Origin: a virus
Lineage: Duplodnaviria; Heunggongvirae; Uroviricota; Caudoviricetes
Length of the DNA stretch: 47,713 nt
Strand: one strand, 5' to 3'
Virus record (IMG/VR): IMGVR_UViG_2541047774_000010
Shown: positions 5,598 to 29,745 of the stretch, piece after piece
Position numbering within the stretch: the stretch's first letter is position 1
Layout of the letters: every line of letters starts with the position of its first letter
The notes under the pieces: generated by a model
Told to the model about the DNA's origin: nothing
Databases searched by the model: none
Seen by the model: only the letters and a program-made list of their open reading frames with translations
Position numbers and translations under genes: made by a program

Positions 5598-5960
5598 TTA
5601 ATGACCTGCTGCGCGGAGTTTTCCGTCAGGTTCACCGGCAAGAGTCAGTAATTGTCCCTGGTCTTCCTGCAGAATAGTCAGGCGACCACCGCGATTGACA
5701 TACATCGGCGTTTCGGTGGTGTCTTCTTCGGAAATTTTCCCGCGGTTAGTCGGGCGAACATATGAGAGTTTGTGTTTGATTTTCACACGGTTCTCATCAA
5801 ATGGTTCGATTTCCAGGTTGAGTGAGACCTTACCTTTGGTTTTCGTGTTCATCACACCTGAAGCGACTTCACTGAGAACTGCGCCGATTTTGGTTTCAAA
5901 TACGCCGCCGTCCAGCTCCCCGATAAATGCCTGCACATCAGTACTGCGTTCGCTAGCCAT
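5598..5960 (-). CDS. yfdP: YfdP-like hypothetical protein
   Basis: 120 aa from MASERST with AGGAG 8 nt upstream; the track ORF extends further 5' from a TTG; position and size as for CPS-53 yfdP. Confidence 0.65.
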   Translation of the reverse strand: MASERSTDVQAFIGELDGGVFETKIGAVLSEVASGVMNTKTKGKVSLNLEIEPFDENRVKIKHKLSYVRPTNRGKISEEDTTETPMYVNRGGRLTILQEDQGQLLTLAGEPDGKLRAAGH

Positions 5961-6096
5961 TTTGCTGCTCCTCATCATATCGACCCTGCAAGGTCGGTTG
6001 GTTTCTCCACAAAACAGAGAAGAACACCTGCGGTGGCAGCCGCCCGGATGGATTGGGTTATGAGCCCGTCGTCCGGTGATGCTCTTCTCTGTTTTG

Positions 6097-6175
6097 TAAA
6101 AAGAGCGGTACCAGCCGGAAGCAAGTGTACAAACTGGTACCGCCAAAGCAGTGGCTGTTGTGGTGACCGGTGCTG
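6097..6175 (-). ncRNA. dicF: Candidate DicF-like sRNA ending in an intrinsic terminator
   Basis: Minus-strand stem GCGGTACCAG / CTGGTACCGC (plus 6133-6142 and 6106-6115) followed by a U-run; the segment TTTGGCGGTACCAGTTTGTAC matches the DicF core as I recall it (TTTGGCGGTATCAGTTTTAC) at about 18 of 20 positions. Recall-based, not verified. Confidence 0.35.
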
Positions 6176-6584
6176 ATCTCCGGCTTGCGGTTATTTCAGA
6201 CTCTCACGGGTGTTTAATTGCCCCGCCGAACAGCTCTTTTCCGCAATAGCTGCAATGTCTTTCGCGCATCAGCCTGCGCATTCACCACAACGCTGAGAGC
6301 ACTTAGCCAGTTACGGCACCACACTTTGTCGCGGTTCCATAAATGCCCTCATCGTTGCACCCTGGTCTCTTCCCAGGTGTCAAACCGAACCGCCACGCTG
6401 GTTAGGCGTCTTATCAGCATCATCATTGACTTGCACATTCCGGCTACCTGGTTTGTTTGCCCGAGCAAGGAGTGGATTGTCCCCTTTAACGTCCCCAGAC
6501 CGCTAACGACGCATGTGCCATACGCCGTGTTACAACCAAATTTTGTTAGTACCTTGTTTGTTGGTCTGGAAAGAAAGATAAAAT

Positions 6585-6630
6585 GAAGTTGCGCATTATG
6601 CAAGTGTTTTTGTTGCGAGATATGCAATTT
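6585..6630. promoter_or_regulatory. OL-like operator repeats and putative leftward early promoter
   Basis: Two 15-bp sites of form TTGCG-N5-TGCAA (TTGCGCATTATGCAA at 6589-6603, TTGCGAGATATGCAA at 6613-6627), similar to the sites between cI and cro; located just beyond the cI terminator. Confidence 0.4.
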
Positions 6631-6637
6631 GATGGGT

Positions 6638-6662
6638 AATGAAAAGCCACCTTCGGGTGGCT
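6638..6662 (-). terminator. Intrinsic terminator downstream of cI
   Basis: GCCACC-TTCG-GGTGGC hairpin followed on the minus strand by a T-run, about 20 nt after the cI stop. Confidence 0.6.
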
Positions 6663-6682
6663 AATTGATGAGGAGGTAAGGG

Positions 6683-7375
6683 TTAATTGTGTCGCTTAAG
6701 GGTTTGTGACTGGCTGATTAAGACCTTTCCAAAGACCATAAACCGGTGTTCATTTTCGCTGGTAATTCCCCATTCACGGTAAATCTGGTTATCAGAAATC
6801 ACCAGTAGTTTGTCAGGTATCATTTGCAGTCGTTTGACATAAATTTTATCATCAAAACCAAATACATAGATACCATCTCCATCAAACTGATTGATACTGA
6901 CATCAACGAAGATGAGATCTCCTGGCTCAATGGTTGGACACATACTGTCCCCACGAACGTTGATTACTTTAATGTGATTTGCTGGCCGTCCGCCAAACAT
7001 CGATACAGCATTATCAGTTCTGTATTCAATGGCATGAATCACATCAATGACATCACCGCCCTGGATAAGGCCATTTCCCGCACTGGCACTGATATCCAGC
7101 ATTTCAATACGGAATACATCCTTCACCTGCGCAACATCCTCACTAATACTGTTTTTACATACAGTATTACTTTTGAAGTCTGAGGTAAAGAGATCAGCAA
7201 TATCAACACCTAAGCTCCTGGCAATATTACTCAGGGCTTGTTCAGTGAATTGTTTCTGCTTACCTGTTTCCAGGCGCGAGATATTTGCCGCATCCACTCC
7301 TATTGCTTCAGCGAGATCGGCGATTTTCATGTTCTTCGCTTGGCGAAGTTGTCTGACTCGATTTCCTATGTTCAT
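6683..7375 (-). CDS. cI: CI-like prophage repressor (XRE HTH plus S24 LexA-type peptidase domain)
   Basis: 230 aa; N-terminal HTH (VRQLRQAKNMKIADLAEAIGVDAANISRLETG); Ala-Gly cleavage site (SASAG); C-terminal GDSMCPTIEPGDLIFVD with the Lys of the catalytic dyad; divergent from cro. Confidence 0.93.
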   Translation of the reverse strand: MNIGNRVRQLRQAKNMKIADLAEAIGVDAANISRLETGKQKQFTEQALSNIARSLGVDIADLFTSDFKSNTVCKNSISEDVAQVKDVFRIEMLDISASAGNGLIQGGDVIDVIHAIEYRTDNAVSMFGGRPANHIKVINVRGDSMCPTIEPGDLIFVDVSINQFDGDGIYVFGFDDKIYVKRLQMIPDKLLVISDNQIYREWGITSENEHRFMVFGKVLISQSQTLKRHN

Positions 7376-7472: not shown

Positions 7473-7733
7473 ATGCAATCACCATTACGGAATGTGCGTA
7501 AAGCGCACGGATTTACTTTGCAGCATGTTGCTGCTGGCGTTCAGGTCAATCCAGCGACGCTGAGTCGTATTGAAAGACTGGAACAAATTCCATCTATCGA
7601 GCTTGCAGAACGTCTGGCCAATTTTTTTAAGGGTGAAATCAGCGAAATGCAGATTCTTTATCCGGCACGTTTTCAATCTAGCCAAAACCAGAATGGGTTT
7701 AAACCACAGGAACAGGAGATAAGCCGTGGGTAA
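7473..7733 (+). CDS. cro: Cro-like HTH repressor
   Basis: 86 aa; XRE-type HTH (LQHVAAGVQVNPATLSRIER); divergent from cI across the operator region. Confidence 0.85.
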   Translation: MQSPLRNVRKAHGFTLQHVAAGVQVNPATLSRIERLEQIPSIELAERLANFFKGEISEMQILYPARFQSSQNQNGFKPQEQEISRG

Positions 7734-8277
7734 GCATCACTGGAAAGTGGAAAAACAGCCTGAGTGGTACGTGAAAGCTGTCAGAAAAACTATCGCGGCG
7801 TTGCCGGGGGGTTACGCTGAAGCTGCTGAGTGGCTGGATGTAACAGAGAACGCTTTATTCAACCGCCTTCGTGCAGATGGCGATCAGATTTTCCCGCTGG
7901 GATGGGCAATGATTTTACAGCGCGCTGCTGGCACTCACTACATTGCGGATGCTGTCGCACAGTCTGCTGGTGGGGTGTTTGTATCGCTTCCTGAAATTGA
8001 GGAAGTAGAGAACGCCGATATAAACCAGCGCCTGCTGGAAGTCATCGAACAAATCGGGAGTTACTCAAAGCAGATTCGTTCGGCAATCGAAGATGGGGTA
8101 GTGGAGCCACACGAGCAGACAGCAATTAATGATGAGTTGTATCTGTCGATTTCGAAGCTCCAGGAGCATGCGGCACTGGTCTACAAAATTTTCTGCGCTC
8201 CAGAAAAGAGTGACGCCCGCGAGTGTGCAGCTCCGGGCGTCGTGGCGTTTTGTGTCTGTGGAGAAACTAACGCATGA
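7726..8277 (+). CDS. Early regulatory protein in the CII position (YdaT/CII-like); GTG start
   Basis: 183-aa ORF beginning at a GTG with AGGAG 8 nt upstream, overlapping the cro stop; the call rests mainly on position. Confidence 0.45.
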   Translation: MGKHHWKVEKQPEWYVKAVRKTIAALPGGYAEAAEWLDVTENALFNRLRADGDQIFPLGWAMILQRAAGTHYIADAVAQSAGGVFVSLPEIEEVENADINQRLLEVIEQIGSYSKQIRSAIEDGVVEPHEQTAINDELYLSISKLQEHAALVYKIFCAPEKSDARECAAPGVVAFCVCGETNA

Positions 8278-8602
8278 ACAGTTTAACGGCAAATAACCGT
8301 TTGTCGCAACAGCTGGTGGTCAGCGTCTCTGAACACCTGTTGTTACGGCATGAATGCAGATTACCAAATCACCAGGCTGTAAGTAACCACAGAGAACTTT
8401 ACCTGACTGTGGGGGGCGAGTTGTGCAGGAACTTAACCGCTGGTTTCGTGACGGAAGAGGGCTTTATGTTCATGTTATTCGTTGGGAACCAGAAACACAG
8501 CGCGTTATCTATCTTCGCAAAGACTACCCGCATGAGTGCTTTAGTCCTTTGTGGAAATTCAGGCGTGATTTTGTTGAGTGTGACGGACCACCAACACATT
8601 GA
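8274..8602 (+). pseudogene. Small early gene split by a G6 homopolymer (frame disrupted in this sequence)
   Basis: ATG 8274 with good RBS (GGAGA); frame 0 runs through G6 at 8411-8416 into non-coding-looking sequence; the protein-like continuation VQELNRWFRDGRGLYVHVIRWEPETQRVIYLRKDYPHECFSPLWKFRRDFVECDGPPTH (8423-8602) lies in the +1 frame. Confidence 0.4.
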
Positions 8603-8687
8603 TTCTGCCATTCCGGGACGTTACACTGTTCAGGCACCTTATAAAACGGGTGCCGGGCGTGGAAACCCGGAATTCACCAAAGCGCAC

Positions 8688-8711
8688 AACCGCGCTCTTG
8701 CGGTTTTTTTG
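8688..8711 (+). terminator. Intrinsic terminator (tR1-like position)
   Basis: AACCGC-GCTCTT-GCGGTT hairpin followed by T7; it lies inside the track's 8274..9425 ORF, arguing that region is not coding. Confidence 0.45.
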
Positions 8712-8879
8712 TGTCATGAGCAGCATTACGCCCAAATTATGGTGGGGCGTGCAGGGCCAACTTCGGTTGGGCCGGGTTCTTTGGTGACCGGTATTTCCAC
8801 CCCTGTACGTCTCACCACCAATAAGGTCGTGGAAAGCCTTGGTGGTGAGTTATTAAAAATCACCAAAGAGGCTGCCATC

Positions 8880-9425
8880 ATGGCTACGATCCCAACCCTC
8901 ACTCAACCTGAAATTGCCATCGTTGATGGTCAGGTTGTTACTTCATCCCTGGCTGTTGCCAACTTCTTCTCCAAACGTCATGACGATGTACTGAAAAAGA
9001 TCCGCACGCTTGAATGCTCAGCATCATTCACTGCCCGCAATTTTTCGGTGAGTGATTACACTGATTGCACAGGTCGCAAACTTCATTGCTACCAAATCAC
9101 ACGCGATGGTTTTGCGTTTCTTGCTATGGGTTTCACGGGTAAACGTGCTGCCCAGTTCAAAGAGGCATATATCAATGCCTTTAACCAGATGGAGAAACAG
9201 CTTTCAAAGCCCGCTGTACCGAGCGACGTTGCACATAACGCCAGCGTTCTCTGTTCCTACATTTCATCAATTCATCAGGTCTGGCTGCAGCAGCTTTATC
9301 CTATGTTGGCAAAAGCCGAATCTCCGCTGGCTGTTAGCTTATATGATTATATTAATGATGCTTCGGCGCTGGCCTGCCTCATAAATTTGTCGCTGAACCC
9401 TTCAGAGGTAAGGGGGCGCAAATGA
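8880..9425 (+). CDS. rha: Rha-family phage regulatory protein (antirepressor-like)
   Basis: 181 aa from MATIPTLTQPEIAIVDGQVVTSS with RBS AAGAGG; motif GFAFLAMGFTGKRAAQFKEAYINAFNQME is typical of Phage_pRha. Confidence 0.8.
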   Translation: MATIPTLTQPEIAIVDGQVVTSSLAVANFFSKRHDDVLKKIRTLECSASFTARNFSVSDYTDCTGRKLHCYQITRDGFAFLAMGFTGKRAAQFKEAYINAFNQMEKQLSKPAVPSDVAHNASVLCSYISSIHQVWLQQLYPMLAKAESPLAVSLYDYINDASALACLINLSLNPSEVRGRK

Positions 9426-9646
9426 TCCGGAATATTTTCAAACGTTTTACCAATCAGACTTTCCGTTGTCCTCGTCCGGGTCAGTGGTACACCACGCCTG
9501 CAGGGCATGTTCTACGTGTTAGCCTGGTTGACCGTGAATGTCAGAAGGTGGTTTGTGAACCGCTGGGCCGTAATTACCGCGTCAGTATGCCGCTTATAGC
9601 CTTTTGCTCCGGAAAAAACATGAAGCATCTCGGAGGTGCAGCATGA
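9422..9646 (+). CDS. Hypothetical protein
   Basis: 74-aa ORF translationally coupled to rha (ATGA overlap) with RBS AGGGGG; no family recognised. Confidence 0.4.
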   Translation: MIRNIFKRFTNQTFRCPRPGQWYTTPAGHVLRVSLVDRECQKVVCEPLGRNYRVSMPLIAFCSGKNMKHLGGAA

Positions 9647-10461
9647 GTATGGAGCTGATGGTTAAAGCGATGAAAATTCGAGTGGGTAATCCATTGCGAA
9701 AACTGGTTCTGATCAAGCTGGCTGATAATGCCAGCGATCAGGGTGAGTGCTGGCCCAGCTACCAGCATATTGCTGACCAGTGCGAGATTAGCAAACGTTC
9801 TGTGATGAATCATATTGCGGCCCTTTGTGATTCCGGGCTGGTAAAAAAAGTCACCCGGAAAAGTGAAAAAGGTAACTCAAGTAATATCTATCTCCTTCAT
9901 CTGGATGGTGCAGGAGATTCACTAGGGGGTAGTGCAAATAATTCACTATCTGGTGCAGCAAATTCACCAGGTAGTGCAGGAGTTGCACCAGGGGGTGGTG
10001 CAGGAGATTCACCCAGAACCAGTCACTCTTTTGAACCAGTCAAAGAACCAGTCAATGAACCAATAGCTGTTGGTGCATCTGCTGATGAGTCTGTGCGAGT
10101 TCGTTCAAACCGACCGGAATACTCTCCGGAGTTTGAGCAGGCATGGCTGGCATACCCCAAACGTGCTGGTGGCAATTCAAAATCTGCAGCCTTCAAAGCC
10201 TGGAAAGCCCGTTTGAATGAGGGGGTAAAACCCGAAACCATGCTGGAAGGTGTGAAACGCTACGCGGGCTGGGTATCTGCGATGGGTAACAGCGGCACAC
10301 AATTTGTGAAACAGGCTGTCACGTTCTTTGGTCCGGATCGTCATTTCGAAGAATCCTGGGAAGTTCCTGCGGTATCTGCAGCCAGACGCGAGGACCCGTA
10401 CTTCAAAGCCAGTTACGACAACGTGGACTACAGCCAGATCCCGGCAGGATTCAGGGGGTAA
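9643..10461 (+). CDS. O: Replication initiator, lambda O-like (N-terminal HTH, iteron-encoded linker, C-terminal domain)
   Basis: Start MSMELMV with RBS GGAGGTG; N-terminal HTH (LIKLADNASDQGECWPSYQHIADQCEISKRSVMNHIAAL); Gly/Ser/Ala linker encoded by the iterons; C-terminal EFEQAWLAYPKR...AFKAWK resembles the lambda O C-terminus. Confidence 0.7.
   Translation: MSMELMVKAMKIRVGNPLRKLVLIKLADNASDQGECWPSYQHIADQCEISKRSVMNHIAALCDSGLVKKVTRKSEKGNSSNIYLLHLDGAGDSLGGSANNSLSGAANSPGSAGVAPGGGAGDSPRTSHSFEPVKEPVNEPIAVGASADESVRVRSNRPEYSPEFEQAWLAYPKRAGGNSKSAAFKAWKARLNEGVKPETMLEGVKRYAGWVSAMGNSGTQFVKQAVTFFGPDRHFEESWEVPAVSAARREDPYFKASYDNVDYSQIPAGFRG
9907..10068 (+). repeat. Putative origin of replication: five ~20-bp iterons plus three 12-bp tandem repeats inside the O-like gene
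   Basis: Five direct repeats of consensus GGTGCAGGAGATTCAC starting near 9907, 9928, 9952, 9970 and 9994; then GAACCAGTCAAA, GAACCAGTCAAT, GAACCAATAGCT at 10033-10068. Confidence 0.55.
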
Positions 10462-10463
10462 TC

Positions 10464-10952
10464 ATGAGTCTTTTGAATGAAGTTCAGAAATTCATTGAAG
10501 CCCATCCGGGGTGTACTTCCGGAGACATTGCAGATGCTTTTGCAGGTTACTCACGGCAGCGCGTTCTGCAGTCAGCAAGCAAGTTACGTCAGAGTGGGCG
10601 TGTGGCTCACCGTTGTGAAGGAGATACACGCAGACATTTCCCGCGCCTGACTGAGAGAGCGCAGGAGCCGGAACCACAACCAGTTCGTGAAACCAGACCT
10701 GTGCGCAATTTCTATGTCGGCACTAACGATCCCCGGGTAATTTTGTGCCTGACCCGCCAGGCTGAAGAACTGGAGTCCAGGGGCTTATACCGTCGTGCTG
10801 CAACCGTGTGGATGGCGGCATTCCGTGAAAGCCACTCCCAGTCAGAACGAAACAATTTTCTGGCGCGCCGTGAGCGGTGCTTACGGAAAAGCAGCAAGCG
10901 CGCTGTATCGGGTGATGAGTGGTATCTGTCAGGGAATTACGTGTGGGCTTAA
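10464..10952 (+). CDS. Hypothetical protein with C-terminal PerC-like motif
   Basis: 162 aa; C-terminal AEELESRGLYRRAATVWMAAF...SERNNFLARRERC resembles the PerC/Pch regulator signature (GLYRRAA) as recalled. Confidence 0.45.
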   Translation: MSLLNEVQKFIEAHPGCTSGDIADAFAGYSRQRVLQSASKLRQSGRVAHRCEGDTRRHFPRLTERAQEPEPQPVRETRPVRNFYVGTNDPRVILCLTRQAEELESRGLYRRAATVWMAAFRESHSQSERNNFLARRERCLRKSSKRAVSGDEWYLSGNYVWA

Positions 10953-11278
10953 TGACGACGTTAACTCAATGCCAGCAGCAGGTGCTGGATATGCTGATTT
11001 CTTATCAGAAAGAACGTGGTTTCCCGCCAACCAATCAGGAGGTGGCAGCCATGCTGGGATACCGTTCGGTGAATGCAGCGGTGGAGCATCTTCGCGCACT
11101 GGAGAAAAAAGGCGTCATCACGATAAAGCGTGGCGTGGCCCGGGGTATCACGCTTCATACCACAGTGAAGGACGACGACAGCGAGGCAGCCGGGATTATC
11201 CGCGCACTGCTTGCCGGTGAGGAAAACGCCAGACTGCGTGCAGCCCACTGGTTACATGAGAGGGGCCTGAAAGTATGA
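10952..11278 (+). CDS. LexA DNA-binding-domain-like protein lacking a peptidase domain
   Basis: Start MTTLTQCQQQV (TAATG coupling to the upstream gene); LTQCQQQVLDMLISYQKERGFPPTNQEVAAMLGYRSVNAAVEHLRALEKKGVI resembles the LexA N-terminal winged helix; no S24 domain follows. Confidence 0.55.
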   Translation: MTTLTQCQQQVLDMLISYQKERGFPPTNQEVAAMLGYRSVNAAVEHLRALEKKGVITIKRGVARGITLHTTVKDDDSEAAGIIRALLAGEENARLRAAHWLHERGLKV

Positions 11279-11664
11279 AGCTGATCCTGCCTTTCCCGCC
11301 CAGCGTGAACACGTACTGGCGACACCCCAACAAAGGGGCGTTTGCTGGTAAGAGCCTGATAAGCGCGGCGGGGCGCAAATTCCAGAGCGCGGCGTGTGCA
11401 GCAATATTTGAGCAGTTACGTCGTCTGCCAAAACCAACGTCGGCACCTGCTTCAGTGGAGATCGTGTTGTTTCCTCCGGATAACCGGATCCGCGATCTGG
11501 ACAACTATAACAAGGCGCTGTTTGACGCCCTGACCCACGCGGGTGTGTGGGAAGACGACAGTCAGGTGAAAAGAATGCTGGTGGAGTGGGGACCGGTTAT
11601 CCCGGAAGGGAAGGTCGAGATCACTATCAGTAAGTACGAGAAAACGGCGGGTGCAGCCGCCTGA
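11275..11664 (+). CDS. rusA: Holliday junction resolvase RusA
   Basis: 129 aa; LPFPPSVNTYWRH...RDLDNYNKALFDALTHAGVWEDDSQV matches the RusA family. Confidence 0.88.
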   Translation: MKLILPFPPSVNTYWRHPNKGAFAGKSLISAAGRKFQSAACAAIFEQLRRLPKPTSAPASVEIVLFPPDNRIRDLDNYNKALFDALTHAGVWEDDSQVKRMLVEWGPVIPEGKVEITISKYEKTAGAAA

Positions 11665-11683
11665 TTAAGAGGAGAAACGAAGT

Positions 11684-12481
11684 ATGAATAATCTGATGGT
11701 TATTGATGGTATTGAAGTTCGTCGTGATGCTTATGGGCGTTACAGCCTGAACGATCTGCACAGGGCTGCTGGTTCTCTGGATAAGCATAAGCCCGCATTC
11801 TGGCTCCGCAATGAGCAAACTGAGCGTTTAATAAGCGAGTTGCAGATTTGCAACTCGGTCAATATAGAGCCAGTTAACGTTATTCGTGGCGGAAATAACC
11901 AGGGGACGTATGTCTGCAAAGAACTGGTGTATGCCTATGCAATGTGGATCAGCCCGTCATTCCATCTGAAGGTGATCCGTACTTTCGACATGGTAACCAG
12001 CGCACCGGAAAAATTATCCGGACAGGCTGCTGACAAGATGCAGGCTGGTGTGATTCTGCTGGACTTTATGCGCCGGGAATTAAACCTGTCTAACTCTTCA
12101 GTGCTTGGTGCCTGCCAGAAACTCCAGGAGGCTGTTGGCTTACCGAATCTGGCACCGCGCTATGCCATTGATGCTCCTGCTGATGCACACGATGGCTCAA
12201 GTCGCCCCACGCTGTCTCTGAGTGCACTGCTGAGGCAGTATGGTATCCGCCTGACGGCTAATCAGGCATATCACCAGATGGTGAAGCTGGGGATCGTTGA
12301 ACAACGCGAACGATACAGCCGTACCGCGATTAACAACATCAAAAAATTCTGGTCGCTGACGGCGAAAGGCTGCATGTTCGGCAAGAACATCACCAGTCCT
12401 GCAAATCCGCGCGAGACGCAGCCGCATTTCTTCGAATCCCGATTCCCTGAGCTGTTAAAGCTGCTCGATACCGTTCATTGA
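11684..12481 (+). CDS. KilA-N domain protein (antirepressor-like)
   Basis: 265 aa with strong RBS (AAGAGGAGAAA); N-terminal KilA-N signature (YSLNDLHRAAG...KPAFWLRNEQT...GTYVCKELVYAYAMWISPSFHLKVI). Confidence 0.8.
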   Translation: MNNLMVIDGIEVRRDAYGRYSLNDLHRAAGSLDKHKPAFWLRNEQTERLISELQICNSVNIEPVNVIRGGNNQGTYVCKELVYAYAMWISPSFHLKVIRTFDMVTSAPEKLSGQAADKMQAGVILLDFMRRELNLSNSSVLGACQKLQEAVGLPNLAPRYAIDAPADAHDGSSRPTLSLSALLRQYGIRLTANQAYHQMVKLGIVEQRERYSRTAINNIKKFWSLTAKGCMFGKNITSPANPRETQPHFFESRFPELLKLLDTVH

Positions 12482-12482
12482 G

Positions 12483-13430
12483 GTGACCGTGAGAGCACTA
12501 CTGACCCCTGAAATTGCCCCGCGTATGGGGATTGTATTGTTCAGGCCAGGTTCAGAGCTGATGCCCCTGTTTATGCAGGGGCGTGTCCTGCTGGAGCCTG
12601 AGCCGGAACGTTATTCATCTTTCGCCAGTGGTGCCGTTCCGGCGGCATCACAACCGCTGGCGGATGATCCTGCCGTTCGGGCCGTGTTCCGCAATGAGGC
12701 AGTGATCCGTCGTGCTGGTGGCGTGGAATGTCTTGAAAGCTGGTTACTTCGTGAAAAGGGCTGTCAGTGGCCTCATTCCGACTGGCACAGCGAGAACATG
12801 ACCACAATGCGGCACGCTCCGGGAGCAATTCGTCTGTGCTGGCACTGCGATAACCAGCTGCGTGACCAGTTCACGGAACGGCTGGAATCAATGGCAACGG
12901 ATAACTGTGCCCGCTGGGTGTTGTCTGTCGTGCGTCGGGATCTCGGTTTTGATGACAGTCACGTTGTGACAATGCCGGAACTGTGCTGGTGGCTGGTTCG
13001 TAATGATTTGGCGGATGCCTTACCGGAAAGTGCAGCCCGTAAGGCACTGAGATTACCGAAGCCTGTTGTGCCATCTGTCACCCGGGAAAGTGACCTTGTG
13101 CCTTCGGTTCCTGCCACCAGCATCATCCAGGATAAAGCGAAAAAGGTGCTGGCGCTGAAAGTGGATCCGGAGTCGCCGGAGTCTTTTATGTTACGCCCCA
13201 AACGTCGCCGCTGGGTTAATGAAAAGTACACGCGCTGGGTTAAGACGCAGCCGTGCGCATGTTGTGGAAAGCCAGCTGATGATCCCCACCACCTGATAGG
13301 CCACGGTCAGGGTGGAATGGGTACAAAAGCGCATGATCTCTTTGTGTTGCCTTTGTGCAGAAAGCATCACGACGAGCTGCATGCGGATACCGTGACATTT
13401 GAAGAGAAGTATGGCTCCCAACTGGAGTAA
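12483..13430 (+). CDS. ydfU: DUF968-family protein, YdfU-like, C-terminally truncated by IS4
   Basis: 315-aa ORF with Cys/His cluster (CACCGKPADDPHHL...CRKHHDELH); the stop TAA at 13428-13430 is supplied by the first bases of IS4; the original last ~20 codons sit after the IS (14854-14917). Confidence 0.75.
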   Translation: MTVRALLTPEIAPRMGIVLFRPGSELMPLFMQGRVLLEPEPERYSSFASGAVPAASQPLADDPAVRAVFRNEAVIRRAGGVECLESWLLREKGCQWPHSDWHSENMTTMRHAPGAIRLCWHCDNQLRDQFTERLESMATDNCARWVLSVVRRDLGFDDSHVVTMPELCWWLVRNDLADALPESAARKALRLPKPVVPSVTRESDLVPSVPATSIIQDKAKKVLALKVDPESPESFMLRPKRRRWVNEKYTRWVKTQPCACCGKPADDPHHLIGHGQGGMGTKAHDLFVLPLCRKHHDELHADTVTFEEKYGSQLE

Positions 13431-14853
13431 TGCCAGTCAGTTAAGCAACTGACTGGCTCTTTTTCGGGGCTGTGGGGTATTTCCAGGGCCTCTCCTTTAC
13501 CACTCTCGGGAAGGCCCTTTCCCTTCTTGTCGGTAATTTCACAAGTTGTCCCATACTTGCAAGATCGTGCATCAGCTCCGGTATACGTCCCGGTGAAGCG
13601 CCCTGCAATGTCATCAGCATTCTCATCACCATTCCGCATGATTCTGAGAAACTCAGTTGATTCGGCCAGTAACCTTTCAGATGTTCCGCCATTTTAATCA
13701 TCTGATATCTCACCAGATTATAAGCCAGTAAGACACCCCACAGCTCTTGCTCCACAAGCTCCGGCTTTTTACTTCTCAGCGTCAGCCTGCTCAGTTGCAT
13801 CGTCTGTTTTATCTCCCTGTATCCCAGTTCGATTTCCCAGCGATGACTGTACAGATCCGCCATTTCTCCTCCGGGGAAGCGCATGGCGTCCGTCATCGAC
13901 GTCAGCAGATGGCAGACTTTTCCTTTGCGCGTCACGGTCAGCAGGCGGGCTGTCACCTCATTTCCCAGTCCCGGCCACTTTTTTCGTGCCTGCGGGCTGG
14001 TTTTCAGCTTCACCAGATGATCGCCTTTACCCAGTTTTCTGATCTCTTCATATTGCGCTCCCTTTCTGAGAGGGATCATCCAGTGGCGGTGTTCTCCCGC
14101 CAGGCTCCAGGCATTTAACAGTCCCAGTGAGTAATAACCTTTGTCCATTAACGTCAGAGTGTTATCGCCGGTTTGTTCTATAAGTTGCTCAGCAAGCTCA
14201 TTTTCGCTGTTCTTCATCGTGCCGAAGGCTGCAGCCGTCAGCAGATGGCTGGTCAGTTCCATCTGGCAGACCATTTTGACCTGCGGGTAGAGCGCCGGGT
14301 TCCCGGCATGTGTCTGGCGGGGGAAGGCTGCATCGTTCTCTGGTGTATCCGGTGTGCGCCAGAACACACCATCGATGGCCAGCAGGGTCAGGCCGCACCA
14401 TTGCGGATGCGGCGTGGCGTTATGCCAGAGCTGCGCTGTTTTCGTGAACACGCGGCGGACAGCCTCACTTCCCAAGCGCTGGCGGGCCTGAATAACGGCA
14501 CTGGGGGCAACGAAGGGGCGATTGCCCGGCAGCATGATGTCCAGGCGATTCACAATCTGGTGAAGAGGTTCTTTACGCTCAAGCGCCATGCCAACAATAC
14601 ACCAGACCATCATTTCGAGGGGAAGACGGCGCTTGCGTAGCGTTACAGTACCTGATTCGGCAAGGCAACGAGAGATGAGTTCGGGGTCGAGGTAATCCCC
14701 CAGAGAAGTCAGTGGGTTACGCAGAGAATCGTAACGGGATACCAAATCAAGGGCCTGTCCAATGTGCATAAAAAAATCCGGAAACGAGTGAGCGTTTCCG
14801 GATTCTTACACAGCCACTGGATCGGTCAACTGATCCTTAACTGATCGGCATTA
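13428..14853 (-). mobile_element. IS4 insertion sequence, complete, with 13-bp target site duplication
   Basis: 1426 bp, the canonical IS4 length; terminal inverted repeats TAATGCCAGTCAGTTAAGC (left) and reverse complement of TAATGCCGATCAGTTAAGG (right); flanking direct repeats CTCCCAACTGGAG at 13415-13427 and 14854-14866. Confidence 0.92.
13441..14769 (-). CDS. insG: IS4 transposase
   Basis: 442-aa ORF matching the IS4 transposase in length and sequence as recalled. Confidence 0.93.
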
Positions 14854-14930
14854 CTCCCAACTGGAGCTGATATTTCGTTTTATCGATCGTGCGCTGGCAA
14901 TTGGCGTACTGGCGTAAGTGGAGAACGAGC

Positions 14931-15683
14931 ATGAACCTTGAAGCCTTACCAAAATATTACTCCCCAAAATCTCCAAAATTGAGTGATGCCGCACCGGCGA
15001 CAGGCTCAGGTGGTTTAACGATTACGGATGTGATGGCTGCGCAGGGGATGGTGCAGTCGAAAGCACCGCTTGGGTTTGCCTTATTCCTGGCAAAAGCTGG
15101 CGTTCAGGATCCTCAGTTTGCGATTGAAGGTCTGCTCAATTACGCGATGGCACTGGATAACCCGACATTGAACAAATTGAGTGAAGAAATCCGGTTACAG
15201 ATCATCCCTTACCTTGTGAGTTTTGCCTTTGCTGATTATTCCAGGTCTGCGGCAAGTAAGGCTCGCTGTGAGCCTTGTGCTGGTACTGGATTTCATAATG
15301 TATTGCGCGAAGTGGTGAAATACTCCAGAAGCGGGGAGTCTGTTATCAAGGAAGAGTGGGTGAAGGAACTATGTCAGCATTGTCATGGTAAGGGAGAAGT
15401 CAGCACAGCGTGCAGAGGGTGTAAGGGTAAAGGTATTGTCCTGGATGAAAAAAGGACCCGGCTTCATGGCGCGCCTGTTTATAAGATTTGTGGGCGTTGC
15501 AATGGAAACCGGTTTAGTCGTTTACCAACGACACTGGCGCGGCGTCATGTCCAGAAGCTGGTACCAGACCTGACTGATTATCAGTGGTACAAAGGATATG
15601 CAGATGTCATTGATAAACTGGTTACAAAGTGCTGGCAGGAAGAAGCATATGCTGAGGTGCAATTAAGAAAAGTGACGAGATAA
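14931..15683 (+). CDS. Late-gene antiterminator Q-like protein (zinc-binding)
   Basis: Start MNLEALPKYY with RBS GTGGAGAA; three CxxCxGxG-type motifs (CEPCAGTGF, CQHCHGKGEV, CRGCKGKG); sits between the nin-like genes and a strong promoter/terminator pair. Confidence 0.6.
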   Translation: MNLEALPKYYSPKSPKLSDAAPATGSGGLTITDVMAAQGMVQSKAPLGFALFLAKAGVQDPQFAIEGLLNYAMALDNPTLNKLSEEIRLQIIPYLVSFAFADYSRSAASKARCEPCAGTGFHNVLREVVKYSRSGESVIKEEWVKELCQHCHGKGEVSTACRGCKGKGIVLDEKRTRLHGAPVYKICGRCNGNRFSRLPTTLARRHVQKLVPDLTDYQWYKGYADVIDKLVTKCWQEEAYAEVQLRKVTR

Positions 15684-15714
15684 ATGATTTTCGCCGAAGA
15701 TGGCGACGTAATGC

Positions 15715-15743
15715 TTGCATTTTTCAAAAAATATGGATAAAAT
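15715..15743 (+). promoter_or_regulatory. Putative late promoter pR'
   Basis: TTGCAT (15715-15720), 17-nt spacer, TAAAAT (15738-15743), about 30 nt downstream of the Q stop. Confidence 0.5.
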
Positions 15744-15790
15744 TTTTTCAACGATGGGCTTTATATACCCGACGTTAAGAAAAAGTAGAA

Positions 15791-15820
15791 AACCCGCTGA
15801 TGAGCGGGTTTTTGTGCTTT
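15791..15820 (+). terminator. Putative tR' intrinsic terminator
   Basis: AACCCGCT-GATG-AGCGGGTT 8-bp stem followed by TTTTGTGCTTT, about 45 nt downstream of the putative pR' -10. Confidence 0.6.
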
Positions 15821-16098
15821 AAATAGGGTAATAGAGATGTTGAATCTCATTCCGGGATTCATGTTTGTTTACTTATTATTTATCGGGTGACTTTGCCTGA
15901 TGTTTAAAATGTTTTCTTCCAGTACTATGTCCCTAGATACAATGAGTCTGCATATTACATTATTAGCAGAGCTATTACGGTCAAAGTACAGCATAAGCTT
16001 TTAAAGCCAATCAACCAGTCATCAAGACAGACGGGGTTATTCATGAAAACTCTCCATGTTTGATTCGATGGGGCCTGAAATTAAAGCTTTAATATAGC

Positions 16099-16311
16099 TC
16101 ATGAAAGGTAAACATTGGCAGCTGAAGGGCCACGCAGACCATTTATCCGGCAAAATTCCACGCGTAATCCGGTGGTAATTTCTTCTGCATCGCGGAGATT
16201 GAGCGCTGAAACATGAAGCTGGACATCGATACGACCATCGGATGGGGTGATAAGACCCTTGCCGCTTTTGCCGTCAAAGGTTTTGACAATTCCTGTCATT
16301 TTACGGGACAA
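16099..16311 (-). CDS. cspF: Cold shock protein paralog, CspF/CspH-like
   Basis: 70 aa [27 protein letters not shown]...[19 protein letters not shown], matching CspF/CspH as recalled. Confidence 0.88.
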
Positions 16312-16611
16312 AAAAATTCCTTAATACTGATAACTGGGCGCACTATACACACGTTCCTGAAGAAAGCTATAGTTTTTTGATGGGGTTGAAGATGGCTGGA
16401 TGTCTAAAATAAACATTGCTTCATATGTTCAACTATGCGTTAATGATTGCGTCGGTTTGAAGAACAGACGATATACGAAGTAGTTTACTAAAGCAGTTCT
16501 CATTTCAGGTGTTATTCACTTATTCCTTCTTTGAGTCTCTCCAATTAAGTACGAAGTCGTTTCTGTTATACAAGCCATTTATGCCGAAAGGCTCAAGTTA
16601 AGGAATGTAGA

Positions 16612-16827
16612 ATGTCAAATAAAATGACTGGTTTAGTAAAATGGTTTAACGCTGATAAAGGTTTTGGCTTTATTTCTCCTGTTGATGGTAGTAAAGATGT
16701 GTTTGTGCATTTTTCTGCGATTCAGAATGATAATTTTCGAACCTTATTTGAAGGTCAAAAGGTTACCTTCTCTGTAGAGAGTGGTGCTAAAGGTCCTGCA
16801 GCAGCAAATGTCATAATTACTGATTAA
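16612..16827 (+). CDS. cspB: Cold shock protein CspB-like
   Basis: 71 aa [38 protein letters not shown], a CspA-family protein matching CspB as recalled. Confidence 0.88.
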
Positions 16828-17108
16828 AATTCATAGTTTGTCTGTATACGATAACGAAGAAGGCTGATGCCTGAGTGGAGATACAGACAGAGTGGTGAAT
16901 ATTGGATCTCTTTAATAAATAGTAAGGAGGTCCAATACATGAAACAATGGCCAGCATATTTGGCAATAACTTAATCAGGAAAAGTATGCTAACCATTGTG
17001 GTGAAGTGCAGGTTTGCTGCATGAATAGTTTTACAGCAGAAGCTAACTGCTGGCATAGCAAAACAAAGTGCGTAAGTGGATGACTCCCACAAAAAGTACC
17101 ACAATATT

Positions 17109-17134
17109 AAACCCGCTCAGGCGGGTTTTTTATT
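17109..17134. terminator. Intrinsic terminator, possibly bidirectional
   Basis: ACCCGC-TCAG-GCGGGT hairpin followed by TTTTTTATT on the plus strand; lies between cspB and the convergent zinc-ribbon gene. Confidence 0.6.
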
Positions 17135-17190
17135 ATCTGCTTTAAATATGTTATTAAAATATAAAAAATACTTGTTACGAATAAAATCAA

Positions 17191-17361
17191 TCAAGCTACA
17201 GCTTTAAGATTTGTCTGGAATACTTTGTTGCAATGAGGGCAGATCAAAAGGGCACCTTTTTGTACTCTTGAAAAACTGTGTTCTGACTCTTGGGTGCAGT
17301 TTGGGCAGGAACATTTAACGAGATAATTACGGCGTGATTTTGAGTCTTTACGTTCTGACAT
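17191..17361 (-). CDS. Small zinc-ribbon protein
   Basis: 56 aa from MSERKDSK with RBS AGGAAAA; two CxxC pairs (CSCPNC...CPHC). Confidence 0.45.
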   Translation of the reverse strand: MSERKDSKSRRNYLVKCSCPNCTQESEHSFSRVQKGALLICPHCNKVFQTNLKAVA

Positions 17362-17579
17362 AGGCTTTTCCTGTATAAATGGCCGTATACAGTACACTAA
17401 ATATGAAAACATATCTCGTATTATTATTTAATATATGATTTTCTTTTAAAATAATTACCCACATTTTTAATGTGTCTGTTTTTTAGCGCCGTTGAGAACA
17501 ACGTTTGCTATAAAAACTAACCCATAGACTCCGATCTTTTCAAACATATTGCACCATCTGTGTACATCGGGGTGAGGAT

Positions 17580-17795
17580 ATGAAATCAATGGATAAGTTA
17601 ACAACAGGTATCGCCTATGGCACATCGGCTGGTAATGCTGGTTTCTGGGCATTGCAGTTACTCGATAAAGTAACTCCGTCACAGTGGGCTGCAATCGGTG
17701 TGCTGGGTAGTCTGGTTTTTGGCCTGCTGACGTATCTGACAAACCTTTATTTCAAGATTAAAGAAGACAGGCGTAAGGTTGCGAGAAGAGAGTAA
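17580..17795 (+). CDS. Holin, EssD/EssQ-like
   Basis: 71 aa [26 protein letters not shown]...[33 protein letters not shown] matches the E. coli prophage holin EssD/EssQ as recalled; RBS GGGGTGAGGA. Confidence 0.88.
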
Positions 17796-17799
17796 TCCA

Positions 17800-18351
17800 A
17801 TGACACAAGACTATGAACTGGTTGTGAAAGGAGTCCGCAATTTTGAGAATAAAGTGGCGGTAACTGTAGCCTTACGGGACAAAAAACGCTTTGACGGTGA
17901 AATTTTTGACCTGGACATCTCGCTGGACCGTGTTGAAGGTGCCGCGCTGGAGTTTTATGAGGCAGCAGCCAGAATGAGAATCAGACAGGTATTCCTGGAT
18001 GTTGCTGCCGGGTTATGTGTAGGGGATGAGCAGTCGCCGGAAAAGCGCCCCATAATTTTAGAGGCGCAGAATGTGTGGATAACCTACAAAGGAAAGCTAC
18101 CGGGAAGAATTACTGGTTCTCTGAAGACGCCACCGACGGCATTGCGGTCAGAAAAAGATGATATTGAATCGCCCATTGAAAAACTGGAGGGCAGCGTCGC
18201 TGATCTGAATAAAAAATTGTCGGTGCTGATCCCTTCTGAAGATGAAAAAAAACGCCGCGATGAGCAGTTTGCGGCGTTTTACGATTATTGCATTGAAGTT
18301 ACTCGCAGGAATTTTGTGAAGATTTTTGAGGAGGGTAAATCTCTTCAGTAA
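17800..18351 (+). CDS. ydfR: YdfR-like protein (N-terminal similarity), with extended C-terminus
   Basis: Start MTQDYELVVKGVRNFENKV matches YdfR as recalled; this ORF is longer (183 aa) than the recalled K-12 YdfR (about 103 aa). Confidence 0.65.
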   Translation: MTQDYELVVKGVRNFENKVAVTVALRDKKRFDGEIFDLDISLDRVEGAALEFYEAAARMRIRQVFLDVAAGLCVGDEQSPEKRPIILEAQNVWITYKGKLPGRITGSLKTPPTALRSEKDDIESPIEKLEGSVADLNKKLSVLIPSEDEKKRRDEQFAAFYDYCIEVTRRNFVKIFEEGKSLQ

Positions 18352-18559
18352 GCTTAATGGCGGACGCTGCAATTAATTCAGGAAGGTCCGCAAGGTCATC
18401 TGTCAGTGGATATGATGAAAAATCGGCGGCAGTTCTGTTAAGAAGCGCTTTAACTAATTCCTTTTCCTTCTCCGGCAACAAGTTGATTAGAGCTACGACT
18501 GCTTGCCTGAGTGCGATTAAATCAGCAAAAGTTTGTTTTGGTAGATTTGTGTAATCCAT
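18299..18559 (-). CDS. Hypothetical protein encoded antisense within the lysis cassette
   Basis: 86 aa from MDYTNLPKQTF with strong RBS GAGGTGA 5 nt upstream; acidic, protein-like composition; overlaps the 3' end of the ydfR-like ORF on the opposite strand. Confidence 0.35.
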   Translation of the reverse strand: MDYTNLPKQTFADLIALRQAVVALINLLPEKEKELVKALLNRTAADFSSYPLTDDLADLPELIAASAIKLTEEIYPPQKSSQNSCE

Positions 18560-18672
18560 AGTCACCTCTGTGTTTATCAGATTGACATCCTCCTCCCGCC
18601 AGTGCCCATCACTGGTGAGGTAAGATTTAACATATCCGGGGATTTGAAGCCGATAAATCCTGATAAATATCC

Positions 18673-19700
<1,028 letters not shown>

Positions 19701-20060
19701 ATTAATATTAAATCGGATTATTTTTAGCGCTGAATGTGAAATTTAAATAAAAAGGACTCTTCCATGAGTCAAAATCCTTGAAATCTTAAGGGTAAGATAA
19801 AAGGTCATTAGACAGAATGACACGTTTTATTAATAAATAAAGCTATTGTTTCATTCGTGTGTTTTTCTTTACAAAAGTAATCCTTGCTATGGTTGGTTAA
19901 TCATGCGTTAATGGTGTTCTGGTTTGTTACAAAATTATCTGAAGCAGTCATTGTTATAATTTTATTATTTGTACCTCTTGAGATCTCCTTGTTGGTTTTT
20001 CTCTCTGATATTTTTTTTCGGACCATTCTGCCCAAGGGCTAACTTCTTCAAAAGGTAATA

Positions 20061-20276
20061 ATGATGTCTAACAAAATGACTGGTTTAGTGAAATGGTTTA
20101 ACCCTGAAAAAGGTTTTGGTTTCATCACGCCGAAAGATGGTAGCAAAGATGTGTTTGTCCATTTCTCAGTTATTCAGAGCAACGATTTCAAAACGTTAAC
20201 TGAGAATCAGGAAGTCGAATTTGGTATTGAGAACGGACCTAAAGGCCCCGCGGCTGTTCATGTAGTGGCACTTTGA
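20061..20276 (+). CDS. cspI: Cold shock protein CspI-like
   Basis: [70 protein letters not shown] matches CspI as recalled. Confidence 0.88.
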
Positions 20277-20480
20277 GGTAGAAAATATTACAAACCATAT
20301 TCACTTTAGATGCCCGTGTTGCCATGGTTCTCAGTATAGAACATCATCTTTTGATGTTTCTGACAGGAATCCTTTCGGGGCAAAATGTATCTTTTGTAAA
20401 TCAATGATGATTACATTTGATAATATTTCACAATACTTAAATGTTAGCCGTCTGTCGTTAGATTTAAGAAAGTGAAAATG

Positions 20481-20505
20481 AAGGCTCCTTCGGGAGCTTT
20501 TTTGC
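20481..20505 (+). terminator. Intrinsic terminator
   Basis: GGCTCC-TTCG-GGAGC hairpin followed by TTTTTTG. Confidence 0.55.
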
Positions 20506-20547
20506 TTAGTGTCTAGTCGATGGATACTCACATATTACGGTAACATT

Positions 20548-20778
20548 ATGAAAAAAATAATAGTTTTTTTTAACTCTGAACCAGCAATGGTAGTGCCAGT
20601 GATGACCGGAGTTAACACCATCATGCGTGAATATCCAAATGGCGAAACAACACACCTCACTGTAATGGCTGCAGGGTTTCCATCTCTGACCGGAGATCAT
20701 AAAGTCATTTATGTAGCAGCGGATCGACATGTAACTTCAGAAGAAATTCTGGAAGCAGCAATGAGACTCTTGAATTGA
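20548..20778 (+). CDS. Hypothetical small protein
   Basis: 76 aa from MKKIIVFFNSEPA; no family recognised. Confidence 0.4.
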   Translation: MKKIIVFFNSEPAMVVPVMTGVNTIMREYPNGETTHLTVMAAGFPSLTGDHKVIYVAADRHVTSEEILEAAMRLLN

Positions 20779-20950
20779 TTTGATTCTAATGCATTGATAA
20801 TAAATGATAATCATCTTTATCTGTTTGTGTGAAATTTAGACCGTCGTATGTTGATTATTGCGATGTTTCATCTTATCTTTTATACGTTTGCTCCATATAA
20901 TTGACACTACTGTGTACCAGGAAAGTCATAACAGACTAAAAGAGGAAATG

Positions 20951-21124
20951 ATGAACATTGAAGAGTTAAAAACAAAAACAGAAGCAGATATTTCTGAATA
21001 TATAACAAAAAAAATCATTGAGCTTAAGAAAAAGACCGGGAAAGAAGTTACCAGTATCCAGTTTACTGCACGGGAAAAAATGACTGGTCTTGAAAGCTAT
21101 GATATCAAGATTGATTTAATCTAG
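20951..21124 (+). CDS. gnsB: GnsA/GnsB-family small protein
   Basis: 57 aa MNIEELKTKTEADISEYITKKIIELKKKTGKEVTSIQFTAREKMTGLESYDIKIDLI matches GnsB as recalled; RBS AAGAGGAA. Confidence 0.8.
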   Translation: MNIEELKTKTEADISEYITKKIIELKKKTGKEVTSIQFTAREKMTGLESYDIKIDLI

Positions 21125-21419
21125 TATGTTTATAGTATTAGCATCAATTTCTCATCAGATGCTATTCAACAATACAAATTACCCATAAACCTCGTTTTTA
21201 CGGGGTTTTGTTATATTTAAACATTACCGAATAGATATAAATCTCGATTGTCGATGGTATTGGTTGTGTGACAATACCTAGTCTTTCCGGTATGCCTGAA
21301 GAGAATACAAACGACAGATTATGTAAGGGAAACGCGCTGAAACTTTCACTCTTTCATGCTGAGTGATTTGACGTTATATTTTTAGCCGCAAGTGAAGAGC
21401 AAACGCATGGAGCGACAAA

Positions 21420-21626
21420 ATGCATAAAGATCAATACACTGATGCCCCCTCCCAGGAGCAGGTTCGTGTAAAAACTATGCTTAATAGCACCATTTCGATG
21501 GGTTACCCGGATGTTGTAATTGCATGTATAGAACATCAAGTATCTCTGGAAGCATTCAGGGCAATTGAGGCCGCGTTAGTAAAGCACGATAAGAATACGA
21601 AGGATTATTCCCTGGTGGTTGACTGA
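21420..21626 (+). CDS. Hypothetical protein, homolog of the small lambda ORF near cos
   Basis: 68 aa; ...[38 protein letters not shown]...DYSLVVD matches the lambda right-end ORF as recalled, and the downstream DNA continues lambda-like up to the IS3 insertion. Confidence 0.6.
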
Positions 21627-21779
21627 TCACCATAACTGCTAACCATTCTGACCATTTCACAAGTGACAGAGTCAATATCGTATTCTGTCACTGTCAGGCT
21701 AATACAGTACTGCAATTCAACTACAGCAATGCCTCGTATTTAGGTGAATTGATCCTACCCACGTAATATGGACACAGGC

Positions 21780-22646
21780 CTAAGCGAGGTTCTGGTTTTC
21801 AAATTGTTCCGGACTGAGGCCGCCACACCAACTGTGCCGCCGCCACCGATTGTAATCACATTCGATATAATTAAACACCGTTGCCCGCATTATTTCCCGG
21901 CTGATAAAGTGTTCTCCATGGATACATTCCACTTTCAGCGAATGAAAGAAGCTTTCCACGCAGGCATTATCGTAGCAGCAACCTTTTGCGCTCATACTTC
22001 CACGCAGATTATGCCGCTTCAGTTGCGCCTGATAATCTGCTGAACAGTACTGGCCTCCACGGTCCGTGTGAACGATAACGTTCCGGGGCCTCTTACGCCG
22101 CCACAGCGCCATCTGCAGGGCATCGCAGGCCAGTTGCGCCGTCATGCGTGGCGACATTGACCAGCCAATAACGGCACGTGACCACAGGTCAATGACCACT
22201 GCCAGATACAGCCAGCCTTCATCTGTACGTAAGTACGTGATGTCTCCTGCCCACTTCTGGTTCGGGCCACTGGCGTAAAAATCCTGCTCCAACAGATTTT
22301 CTGACACAGGCAGGCCGTGTGCGCGGTAGCTGACCGGGCTGAACTTCCGGGAGGCCTTTGCCCTCAGTCCCTGACGGCGCAGGCTTGCCGCCACGGTTTT
22401 TACGTTAAAGGGGTAACCCTGAGCACGCAGTTCATCCGTCAGGCGTGGGGCACCGTAACGCTGTTTTGACCGGGTAAAAGCCGCGAGGACAACGCTGTCG
22501 CAGTGTTGGCGGAACTGCTGACGCGTGCTTATCCTTGTCCGCCGCTGACACCACGTATACCAGCCGCTGCGGGCCACCCGGAGCACGCGGCACATTGCTT
22601 TGATGCTGAACTCAGCCTGATGTTTTTCAATAAAGACATACTTCAT
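21780..22646 (-). CDS. insF: IS3 transposase OrfB (expressed as OrfAB by -1 frameshift)
   Basis: 288 aa [21 protein letters not shown]..., matching IS3 InsF as recalled. Confidence 0.93.
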
Positions 22647-22942
22647 TTCAGACGATTCGCAAAGTATGTCGCGGCCTTTTGGAGGATAGCCAGCTCTTCA
22701 TCCCGTTCTGCCAGCTGGCGTTTGAGACGTGCAATCTCGGTAGACATCTCCAGTTCACGTTCAGAAGACGTCTGCTGATTTTGCTGTTTACTGCGCCAGT
22801 TGTAGAGCTGTGATTCATACAGGCTGAGTTCACGGGCTGCGGCAGTAACACCGATGCGTTCAGCAAGCTTCAGGGCTTCACTGCGAAATTCAGGCGAATG
22901 CTGTTTACGGGGTTTTTTACTGGTTGATACTGTTTTTGTCAT
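22643..22942 (-). CDS. insE: IS3 transposase OrfA
   Basis: 99 aa from [19 protein letters not shown], matching IS3 InsE as recalled; overlaps orfB at a frameshift window. Confidence 0.9.
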
Positions 22943-23239
22943 GTGAGTCACCTCTGACTGAGAGTTTACTCACTTAGCCGCGTGTCCACTATTGCTGGGT
23001 AAGATCAAATTTACAATATCGTCCAGTTCGGATGCCGGCTGCATTTCTGAAGATAAGGCATTTCGGTTCGCGTATTTTCCCCTCATGCTCGTCAGTCCTG
23101 CGCGTAGTAAGAAACAGGACACTCACACTAATTTGTGTGGGCATGCTGTGATGTCCTTCTGAATTATCCCCACGCCATTATGTAAAGCTCTGTTTCAGAT
23201 GCTCGTCACGGTTGTCAGGCTGTCGGGTCCTCCCTGGGG

Positions 23240-26033: not shown

Positions 26034-26242
26034 ACCAGAATGATATCGAAGCCATGATTCAGCGTTATACGGAAGCTGAAATGGCGGTGCTGGACGGAAA
26101 ATCCGTCACCTTTAATGGTCAGCAGATGACCATGGAAAACTTATCTGAGATCCGGCAGGGACGGCAGGAGTGGGAGCGCCGCCTTGCGGCTCTGATTACA
26201 CGACGACGGGGGCATCCCGGGTACCGGCTTGCGAGGTTCTGA
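26024..26242 (+). CDS. W: Head-tail joining protein, gpW-like
   Basis: 72 aa between terminase and portal; C-terminal RRRGHPGY resembles the lambda W C-terminus. Confidence 0.6.
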   Translation: MVMNQNDIEAMIQRYTEAEMAVLDGKSVTFNGQQMTMENLSEIRQGRQEWERRLAALITRRRGHPGYRLARF

Positions 26243-27750: not shown

Positions 27751-27763
27751 TTCCTGGTTCAGG

Positions 27764-29722: not shown

Positions 29723-29745
29723 ACGTCGCAGACAACAACTCTGAT

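Follow-up and report, generated by a model that had tools for sequence, protein, structure and literature searches.

What becomes of a lambdoid prophage when an insertion sequence (IS) comes to lie between its early promoters and the gene for its late antiterminator? The question is raised by a viral DNA stretch of 47,713 nucleotides from the Caudoviricetes (IMG/VR record IMGVR_UViG_2541047774_000010), which was analysed over its whole length and is referred to here as the window. It holds an SfV/mEp460/2H10-like lambdoid prophage, integrated beside yjjG, in which a complete IS4 (13428..14853, minus strand) interrupts the 3′ end of a gene of the DUF968/HNH type, immediately ahead of the antiterminator gene Q. 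The features of this locus suggest that the insertion probably causes Q, and hence late transcription, to be strongly reduced after induction, while early functions would be unaffected. A preliminary description of the window had proposed that Q may be cut off and that the late genes would then be blocked; this functional reading is plausible and is consistent with all of the sequence features described below, although the block, which we infer from them, may be leaky.

On the evidence of its extent, ends and transposase, the inserted element is an ordinary, intact copy of IS4. Its limits were set by its inverted repeats and by a gap-free alignment to the IS4 of Escherichia coli K-12, and its 1426 bp equal the annotated K-12 element, so that the length was correctly given in the preliminary description as exactly canonical. 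The terminal inverted repeats (13428-13445 and 14836-14853), which had been described as imperfect, read TAATGCCAGTCAGTTAAG and TAATGCCGATCAGTTAAG and are identical at 16 of 18 positions; both termini agree with the end signature of the IS4 subgroup, -AATR--------WTW (PMC2266710). Aligned with the annotated 1426-bp IS4 of K-12 MG1655, the window copy shows 12 mismatches and no gaps (99.16% identity), and copies that are 100% identical to it across all 1426 bp are present in many E. coli chromosomes and plasmids. The sole long open reading frame (ORF) within the element is single and unframeshifted, and encodes an intact transposase of 442 amino acids (13441..14769, minus strand; Pfam Nterm_IS4, 3e-33, and DDE_Tnp_1, 9e-32). 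Its translation contains the Y-2-R-3-E-6-K motif and differs from K-12 InsG at four amino acids, and its orientation is opposite to that of the early-right genes, in keeping with the antisense placement described earlier. Elements of the IS4 subgroup are 1400-1650 bp long and generate target duplications of 10-13 bp, and the window copy conforms to the definition of the subgroup in length, ends, transposase type and duplication length (PMC2266710). The K-12 element (insG; IS4 family, subgroup IS4) has the same length, 18-bp ends and 442-amino-acid DDE/YREK transposase; in these terms the window copy differs from it only in its location at the 3′ end of a prophage DUF968 gene.

The element is abutted on either side by a perfect copy of a 13-bp target-site duplication, CTCCCAACTGGAG (13415..13427 on the left and 14854..14866 on the right), a sequence that is found just twice in the whole window; the duplication reported in the preliminary description is therefore real. 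Marked target specificity has been reported for elements of subgroup IS4 (PMC2266710), and the window copy was compared with six further full-length IS4 copies (loci L001, L004 and L009-L012), situated near thiM, K-12 yjgZ-nanX, sbcD, a sulfatase gene, crr-pdxK and hyfE. All six are flanked by duplications of 12-13 bp that are alike among themselves, and the seven independent insertions have in common a duplicated core resembling (C)TCCCAnCTGGnG, preceded at a distance of a few bases by an A-run and followed by a T-run. The 3′ end of the DUF968 gene, which reads GAGAAGTATGG-CTCCCAACTGGAG-CTGATATTT (13400-13427 and 14854-14880), fits this pattern. IS4 thus appears to be strongly sequence-selective and to have inserted here at a site that suits its preference; since target choice accounts for the position of the insertion, selection acting on Q is not needed to explain it. 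Some matches to a junction-spanning query extended 16-26 nt past the IS end; shared flanking DNA was considered as their source and rejected, the loci being unrelated and target preference being the cause.

The interrupted gene now encodes a product of 315 amino acids counted from the GTG at 12483 (12483..13430, plus strand; relatives are annotated as starting at the GTG at 12489), the insertion having fallen in its last 50 bp. The first three bases of IS4 now serve as its stop codon, TAA (13428-13430), and its original C-terminus is still readable beyond the right duplication, both as proposed in the preliminary description. The displaced 3′ end (14867..14917, plus strand) consists of 16 codons, LIFRFIDRALAIGVLA (14867..14914), and the original TAA (14915-14917), and is the same as in the intact genes of CFT073, S88, APEC O1 and N51. 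When IS4 and one copy of the duplication are removed in silico, the ORF again ends in ...GSQLE-LIFRFIDRALAIGVLA followed by the stop codon. The earlier estimate that about 20 codons had been lost was correct as to the clipped C-terminus but not as to the count, which is 16. The truncated protein matches positions 2-158 of the 171 in the Pfam DUF968 profile (PF06147), short of full length, while the restored protein matches positions 2-171 of 171 as well as positions 1-334 of 334 of PHROG_96, 'HNH endonuclease'. Since only the restored protein gives a full profile match, the gene as it stands encodes a truncated member of the family, and the 16 lost residues belong to the conserved domain.

The comparison with IS-free relatives suggested in the preliminary description was carried out and places the insertion in time. 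With IS4 removed, the restored junction agrees over all 800 bp with the DUF968-ydfT junctions of CFT073, S88, APEC O1, N51 and others (100% identity), and it is found at a coverage of at least 80% in 2,427 complete genomes. A junction-spanning query for the IS4-bearing form returned none among 5,426 complete E. coli genomes, and searches of GTDB representative genomes, JGI metagenomes and IMG/VR showed the exact IS4 junction to be absent from all three. The exact truncated DUF968 protein is on record for one contig, NCBI GCA_000457775.1 scaffold KE699963.1, where its neighbours are as in the window. A near-isogenic IS-free counterpart is the prophage beside yjjG in strain N51, a cerebrospinal fluid (CSF) isolate; its identity to the window is 99.96% on the left side of IS4 and 99.78% on the right side, IS4 being the only structural difference between the two. 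Because the IS-free sites are identical and the junction occurs in no other genome searched, the insertion is, by these comparisons, recent and private to one E. coli lineage.

The gene that lies behind the element is Q (14931..15683, plus strand), which encodes an antiterminator of the YdfT/QuuQ type with 250 amino acids (Pfam Antiterm PF03589, E = 1.3e-53). At the amino-acid level it is 99.6% identical to Q of phage 2H10 and 96.4% identical to Q of mEp460 and of SfV. It is preceded by its own GGAG Shine-Dalgarno sequence (14920-14923), seven bases before the ATG, and occupies the position expected of a Q gene, between a nin-like region, represented by DUF968, and the holin, lysozyme and Rz genes. 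Its family membership suggests that it antiterminates transcription at the late promoter and that the late genes depend on it. In the isolated phages SfV, mEp460 and 2H10 the order KilA-N, DUF968/HNH, Q is as in the window; unlike the window, these phages carry no IS, and their DUF968 stop codon lies 13 nt before the Q ATG. In the window 77 bp lie between the end of IS4 and the Q ATG (14931), close to the 80 bp estimated earlier, and 1.4 kb of IS4, with its transposase gene antisense, now separates Q from every upstream phage promoter. The genes from 7473 to Q all lie on one strand and are tightly packed: the rightward operon starts with a cro-like gene (7473..7733, plus strand) and continues with the cII-like YmfL, a Rha-type anti-repressor region, a replication protein, PerC, a LexA-like protein, RusA, KilA-N, DUF968/HNH and Q.

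The first signal that a transcript of this operon would meet in the element is a terminator-like hairpin. It lies inside the IS4 end in the phage early-right sense (13432..13464, plus strand), reads GCCAGTCAGTT-AAGC-AACTGACTGGC and then TCTTTTT, and begins two bases past the new DUF968 TAA. Its stem (13432-13457) has 11 pairs, six of them G-C, with a 4-nt loop, and is followed by UCUUUUU, the whole lying 5-37 nt inside the IS. The predicted folding energy is -24.2 kcal/mol with the flank (z = -4.8) and -17.5 kcal/mol for the hairpin alone. In the terminator scan it was, with its 11 pairs, the strongest match on the plus strand. Its d'Aubenton-Carafa-type score is +0.9; between the early-right promoter pR and Q the only other positive candidate on that strand was the native isrK terminator, at +1.8. 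The hairpin thus has the sequence form of an intrinsic (Rho-independent) terminator, and termination is predicted at this point. Further into the element, the untranslated antisense RNA is rich in C and poor in G (13480..14080, plus strand, as delimited by C/G windows). Of 110 windows covering IS4 and the 77 bp between it and Q, 25 had a C/G ratio of 1.5 or more, compared with 14 of 453 in the native operon, and all 25 start within 13480-14000. Such a composition suits Rho, and the region is a candidate that could conceivably serve for Rho loading.

At the other end of the element, directly upstream of the transposase ATG, a promoter-like site (TTGACC-16-AAGAAT with TG) is combined with a hairpin that has a U7 run (14775..14829, minus strand). 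Read on the plus strand, this hairpin is followed only by UUCUUAC and, with a score of -15.9, is a poor terminator in that direction. Both ends of IS4 therefore present strong hairpins followed by U-runs to inbound transcripts (13432-13464, plus strand, UCUUUUU; 14775-14808, minus strand, U7), and the predicted transposase promoter (14829-14802, minus strand) would start transcription inside the second of them. The paired hairpins look like a shield that protects the transposase gene from outside transcription.

Neither standard nor relaxed scans revealed a plus-strand promoter facing Q, with a match of at least 9/12, between 13400 and 14940. Candidates for a Q promoter inside IS4 or in the 77-bp gap match at 8/12 positions at best, which is chance level, and were not used as evidence. 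One of them would give the insertion quite the opposite effect: a hybrid outward promoter with its -35 element (TCGGCA) in the IS end and its -10 element (GATATT) in the flank (TCGGCA-18-GATATT, 14845-14874) could drive Q constitutively, at a low level and independently of the repressor. Transcription from such a promoter would start about 50 nt ahead of the ATG of Q, and a number of other IS elements are known to form hybrid promoters, although no outward promoter of IS4 has, to our knowledge, been reported. The 8/12 match with an 18-bp spacer is no better than chance and lies below the threshold of the standard scan; furthermore, since Q-type proteins are toxic when expressed, as is AntQ of the prophage Gifsy-1, a constitutive arrangement would probably be counter-selected (PMC4825925). 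Expression of Q from the IS end is accordingly considered very improbable.

Whether transcripts initiated upstream could nevertheless pass through the element may depend in part on antitermination. ORFs left of the repressor gene (5598-6682) and the early-right operon were scanned for an N-type protein with Pfam and PHROGs. Among the protein genes covered, no ORF matched an N-like antiterminator, whether in 5598-6682 or in the rest of the early region, and no N-like gene is annotated in N51, in CFT073 or in the viable phages 2H10 and mEp460. In lambda, polymerase modified by N is able to overcome IS polarity; with no detectable N in this SfV/mEp460-like prophage, that polarity may not be relieved. 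Taken together, the terminator-like hairpin, the C-rich RNA, the lack of a detectable N and the lack of a convincing promoter facing Q make a strong reduction of Q the most likely consequence of the insertion.

The sequence of events may be envisaged as follows. A standard, active copy of IS4 transposed recently, in one E. coli lineage, into a sequence that fits its preferred target, at the 3′ end of the DUF968/HNH gene. Early-right transcripts would since then shed their ribosomes at the new TAA and, two bases further on, meet the intrinsic-terminator-like hairpin with its U-run in the IS end. Those that escaped would have to continue for some 1.4 kb as RNA that is untranslated, in part rich in C and exposed to Rho, in a type of phage without detectable N-type antitermination and with no convincing promoter directed toward Q. 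Synthesis of Q after induction would be strongly lowered, and with it the Q-dependent late transcription of the lysis, terminase, head and tail genes, whereas excision, replication and other early functions would remain intact.

Several observations weigh against so strong an effect. The terminator score of the hairpin at the IS4 end is only marginally positive and its U-run is interrupted (UCUUUUU); weak 8/12 promoter-like matches, among them the IS-end/flank hybrid, do exist; antitermination of an RNA-based (put) type, or of some otherwise unrecognised kind, may operate here; and a second element, an IS3 in the late region, leaves the inducibility of the prophage before the arrival of IS4 in question. 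In Gifsy-1, the isrK terminator is partly read through (PMC4825925), and as its score is similar to that of the IS4 hairpin, some Q transcript probably survives. The insertion may thus be real but leaky or neutral, read-through or unrecognised antitermination allowing Q to reach its threshold, perhaps late, in a prophage that is still inducible; its sole firm effect would then be the 16-residue truncation of the DUF968 protein. We regard this outcome as possible but distinctly less likely than a strong reduction of Q. Apart from the borderline score, the interrupted U-tract and the leakiness of isrK, it is favoured by the isrK and C4 terminators that the early-right operon has ahead of its replication genes and Q, and across which viable relatives express Q. 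Beyond these, however, the IS brings in a second terminator, an untranslated RNA of 1.4 kb that is C-rich in places, and convergent transcription of the transposase gene, in a phage for which the Pfam and PHROG scans detected no N-like factor; moreover, the mutation in gal from which IS4 was originally isolated was strongly polar.

The likeness to Gifsy-1 also concerns the arrangement of the early region. In that prophage transcription of the Q-type gene antQ begins 1.6 kb upstream of it and not at an adjacent promoter of its own (PMC4825925). As in its isrK-anrP-antQ arrangement, the window has isrK and C4-type RNAs (8634-8822) upstream of a Rha-type anti-repressor, together with a Q-type antiterminator; in Gifsy-1, unlike in the window, antQ lies upstream of isrK, and the window Q is likened to AntQ by type. 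According to Rfam, the isrK and C4-type antisense RNAs (8634-8710 and 8735-8822) are located within an ORF of 383 amino acids annotated as 'Rha family' (8274-9425), and a Pfam Phage_ASH match to amino acids 117-213 of this ORF overlaps the genes for both RNAs. Since this match coincides with the RNA genes, the 383-amino-acid ORF may be over-called. By analogy, the region 8274-9425 may act like the isrK-orf45-anrP anti-repressor switch of Gifsy-1.

The second element mentioned above is a complete IS3 of 1258 bp (21750..23007, minus strand), with orfA/orfB and a 3-bp duplication, AAT; it is oriented against the direction of late transcription. In both the window and N51 it separates the lysis/moron region from the DUF1441 small-terminase gene and, being shared with N51, it is older than the IS4 insertion. 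Its position is 224 bp beyond the start point of the linear 2H10 record; a hidden recombination joint at this place was considered and ruled out by the canonical 1258 bp and the intact 3-bp duplication. The prophage might have been non-productive before IS4 arrived, in which case the insertion would be a second, neutral event in a prophage already in decay and would have no phenotype of its own. Besides the IS3 shared with N51, such prior decay is suggested by a YdfR-like gene that PGAP called partial; 2H10 has a similar ORF of 183 amino acids after the holin gene, and the call may therefore be an annotation artefact. The gene set is, on the other hand, complete apart from the two IS elements, and identity to the isolated phage 2H10 amounts to 99.7-99.85% in the stretch that begins with the replication genes, includes Q and ends with the lysis genes (99.85% at 9478-13427 and 99.69% at 14854-21525). 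The IS3 itself lies in Q-dependent late transcription, and the Q-modified polymerase of lambdoid phages resists terminators. On balance, a prophage already non-productive before IS4 is improbable, and a strong reduction of Q by IS4 remains the preferred interpretation.

A more far-reaching version of that interpretation may be put forward as speculation, with a low likelihood. With inward-facing terminator-like hairpins at both of its ends, IS4 could act as an orientation-independent transcriptional insulator that, brought by its target choice into the position separating Q from the early operon, locks an N-less prophage in a state in which it excises and replicates but causes no lysis. Such a state could be selected, as it silences a toxic Q, and could in principle be reversible by precise excision across the 13-bp duplication.

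The remainder of the prophage, as derived from the annotation of N51 and CFT073 and from Pfam and PHROG scans, is organized as follows. The left part comprises the integrase gene followed by the leftward early genes yfdP, yfdQ and yfdR, and then a cI-like S24 repressor gene (6683..7375, minus strand). Q is followed by the morons cspF and cspB, the holin, lysozyme and Rz genes and IS3, and then by the terminase, head and tail genes. The packaging/head module of the window (23440-31000; DUF1441 small terminase and a ClpP-like protease/capsid fusion) is unrelated to its counterpart in 2H10; in the early, lysis and tail-fibre regions, identity between the two is 95-99.8%, a combination typical of lambdoid mosaicism. 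Two thermoregulator leaders of the cspA type (16451-16890 and 19917-20322) lie ahead of the cspB-like and cspI-like cold-shock genes of the prophage, which are morons within the Q-dependent late region. Near the right end, a full-length match to the Rfam IS009 RNA (221 bits; 46180-46378) overlaps the tail-fibre assembly gene (45837-46412) in its 3′ part and is located shortly before the invertase gene (46510-47100).

Both the element and the effect proposed for it are already known: an IS insertion is polar on downstream prophage genes, and polar IS insertions that ground prophages are of a kind known since the 1970s, so that nothing here is new in kind. In the classical polar insertions (IS1, IS2 and IS4 in gal, and IS elements in the early-right region of lambda) and in 'grounded' prophages, the IS lies between a promoter and the distal genes, as it does in the window; compared with the lambda insertions, the present prophage is without a detectable N, and its polarity is predicted from sequence. 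No wider consequence follows, because IS4 and IS polarity are both textbook knowledge. The case is mildly instructive in that this type of phage seems to be without the N-type antitermination that relieves IS polarity in lambda, and the near-isogenic IS-free strain N51 and the viable sister phage 2H10 exist as comparisons. If the predicted polarity is true, the prophage of this strain would be unable to switch on its lysis and virion genes, and the locus would represent one small, clean natural case of the grounding of a prophage by a single IS.

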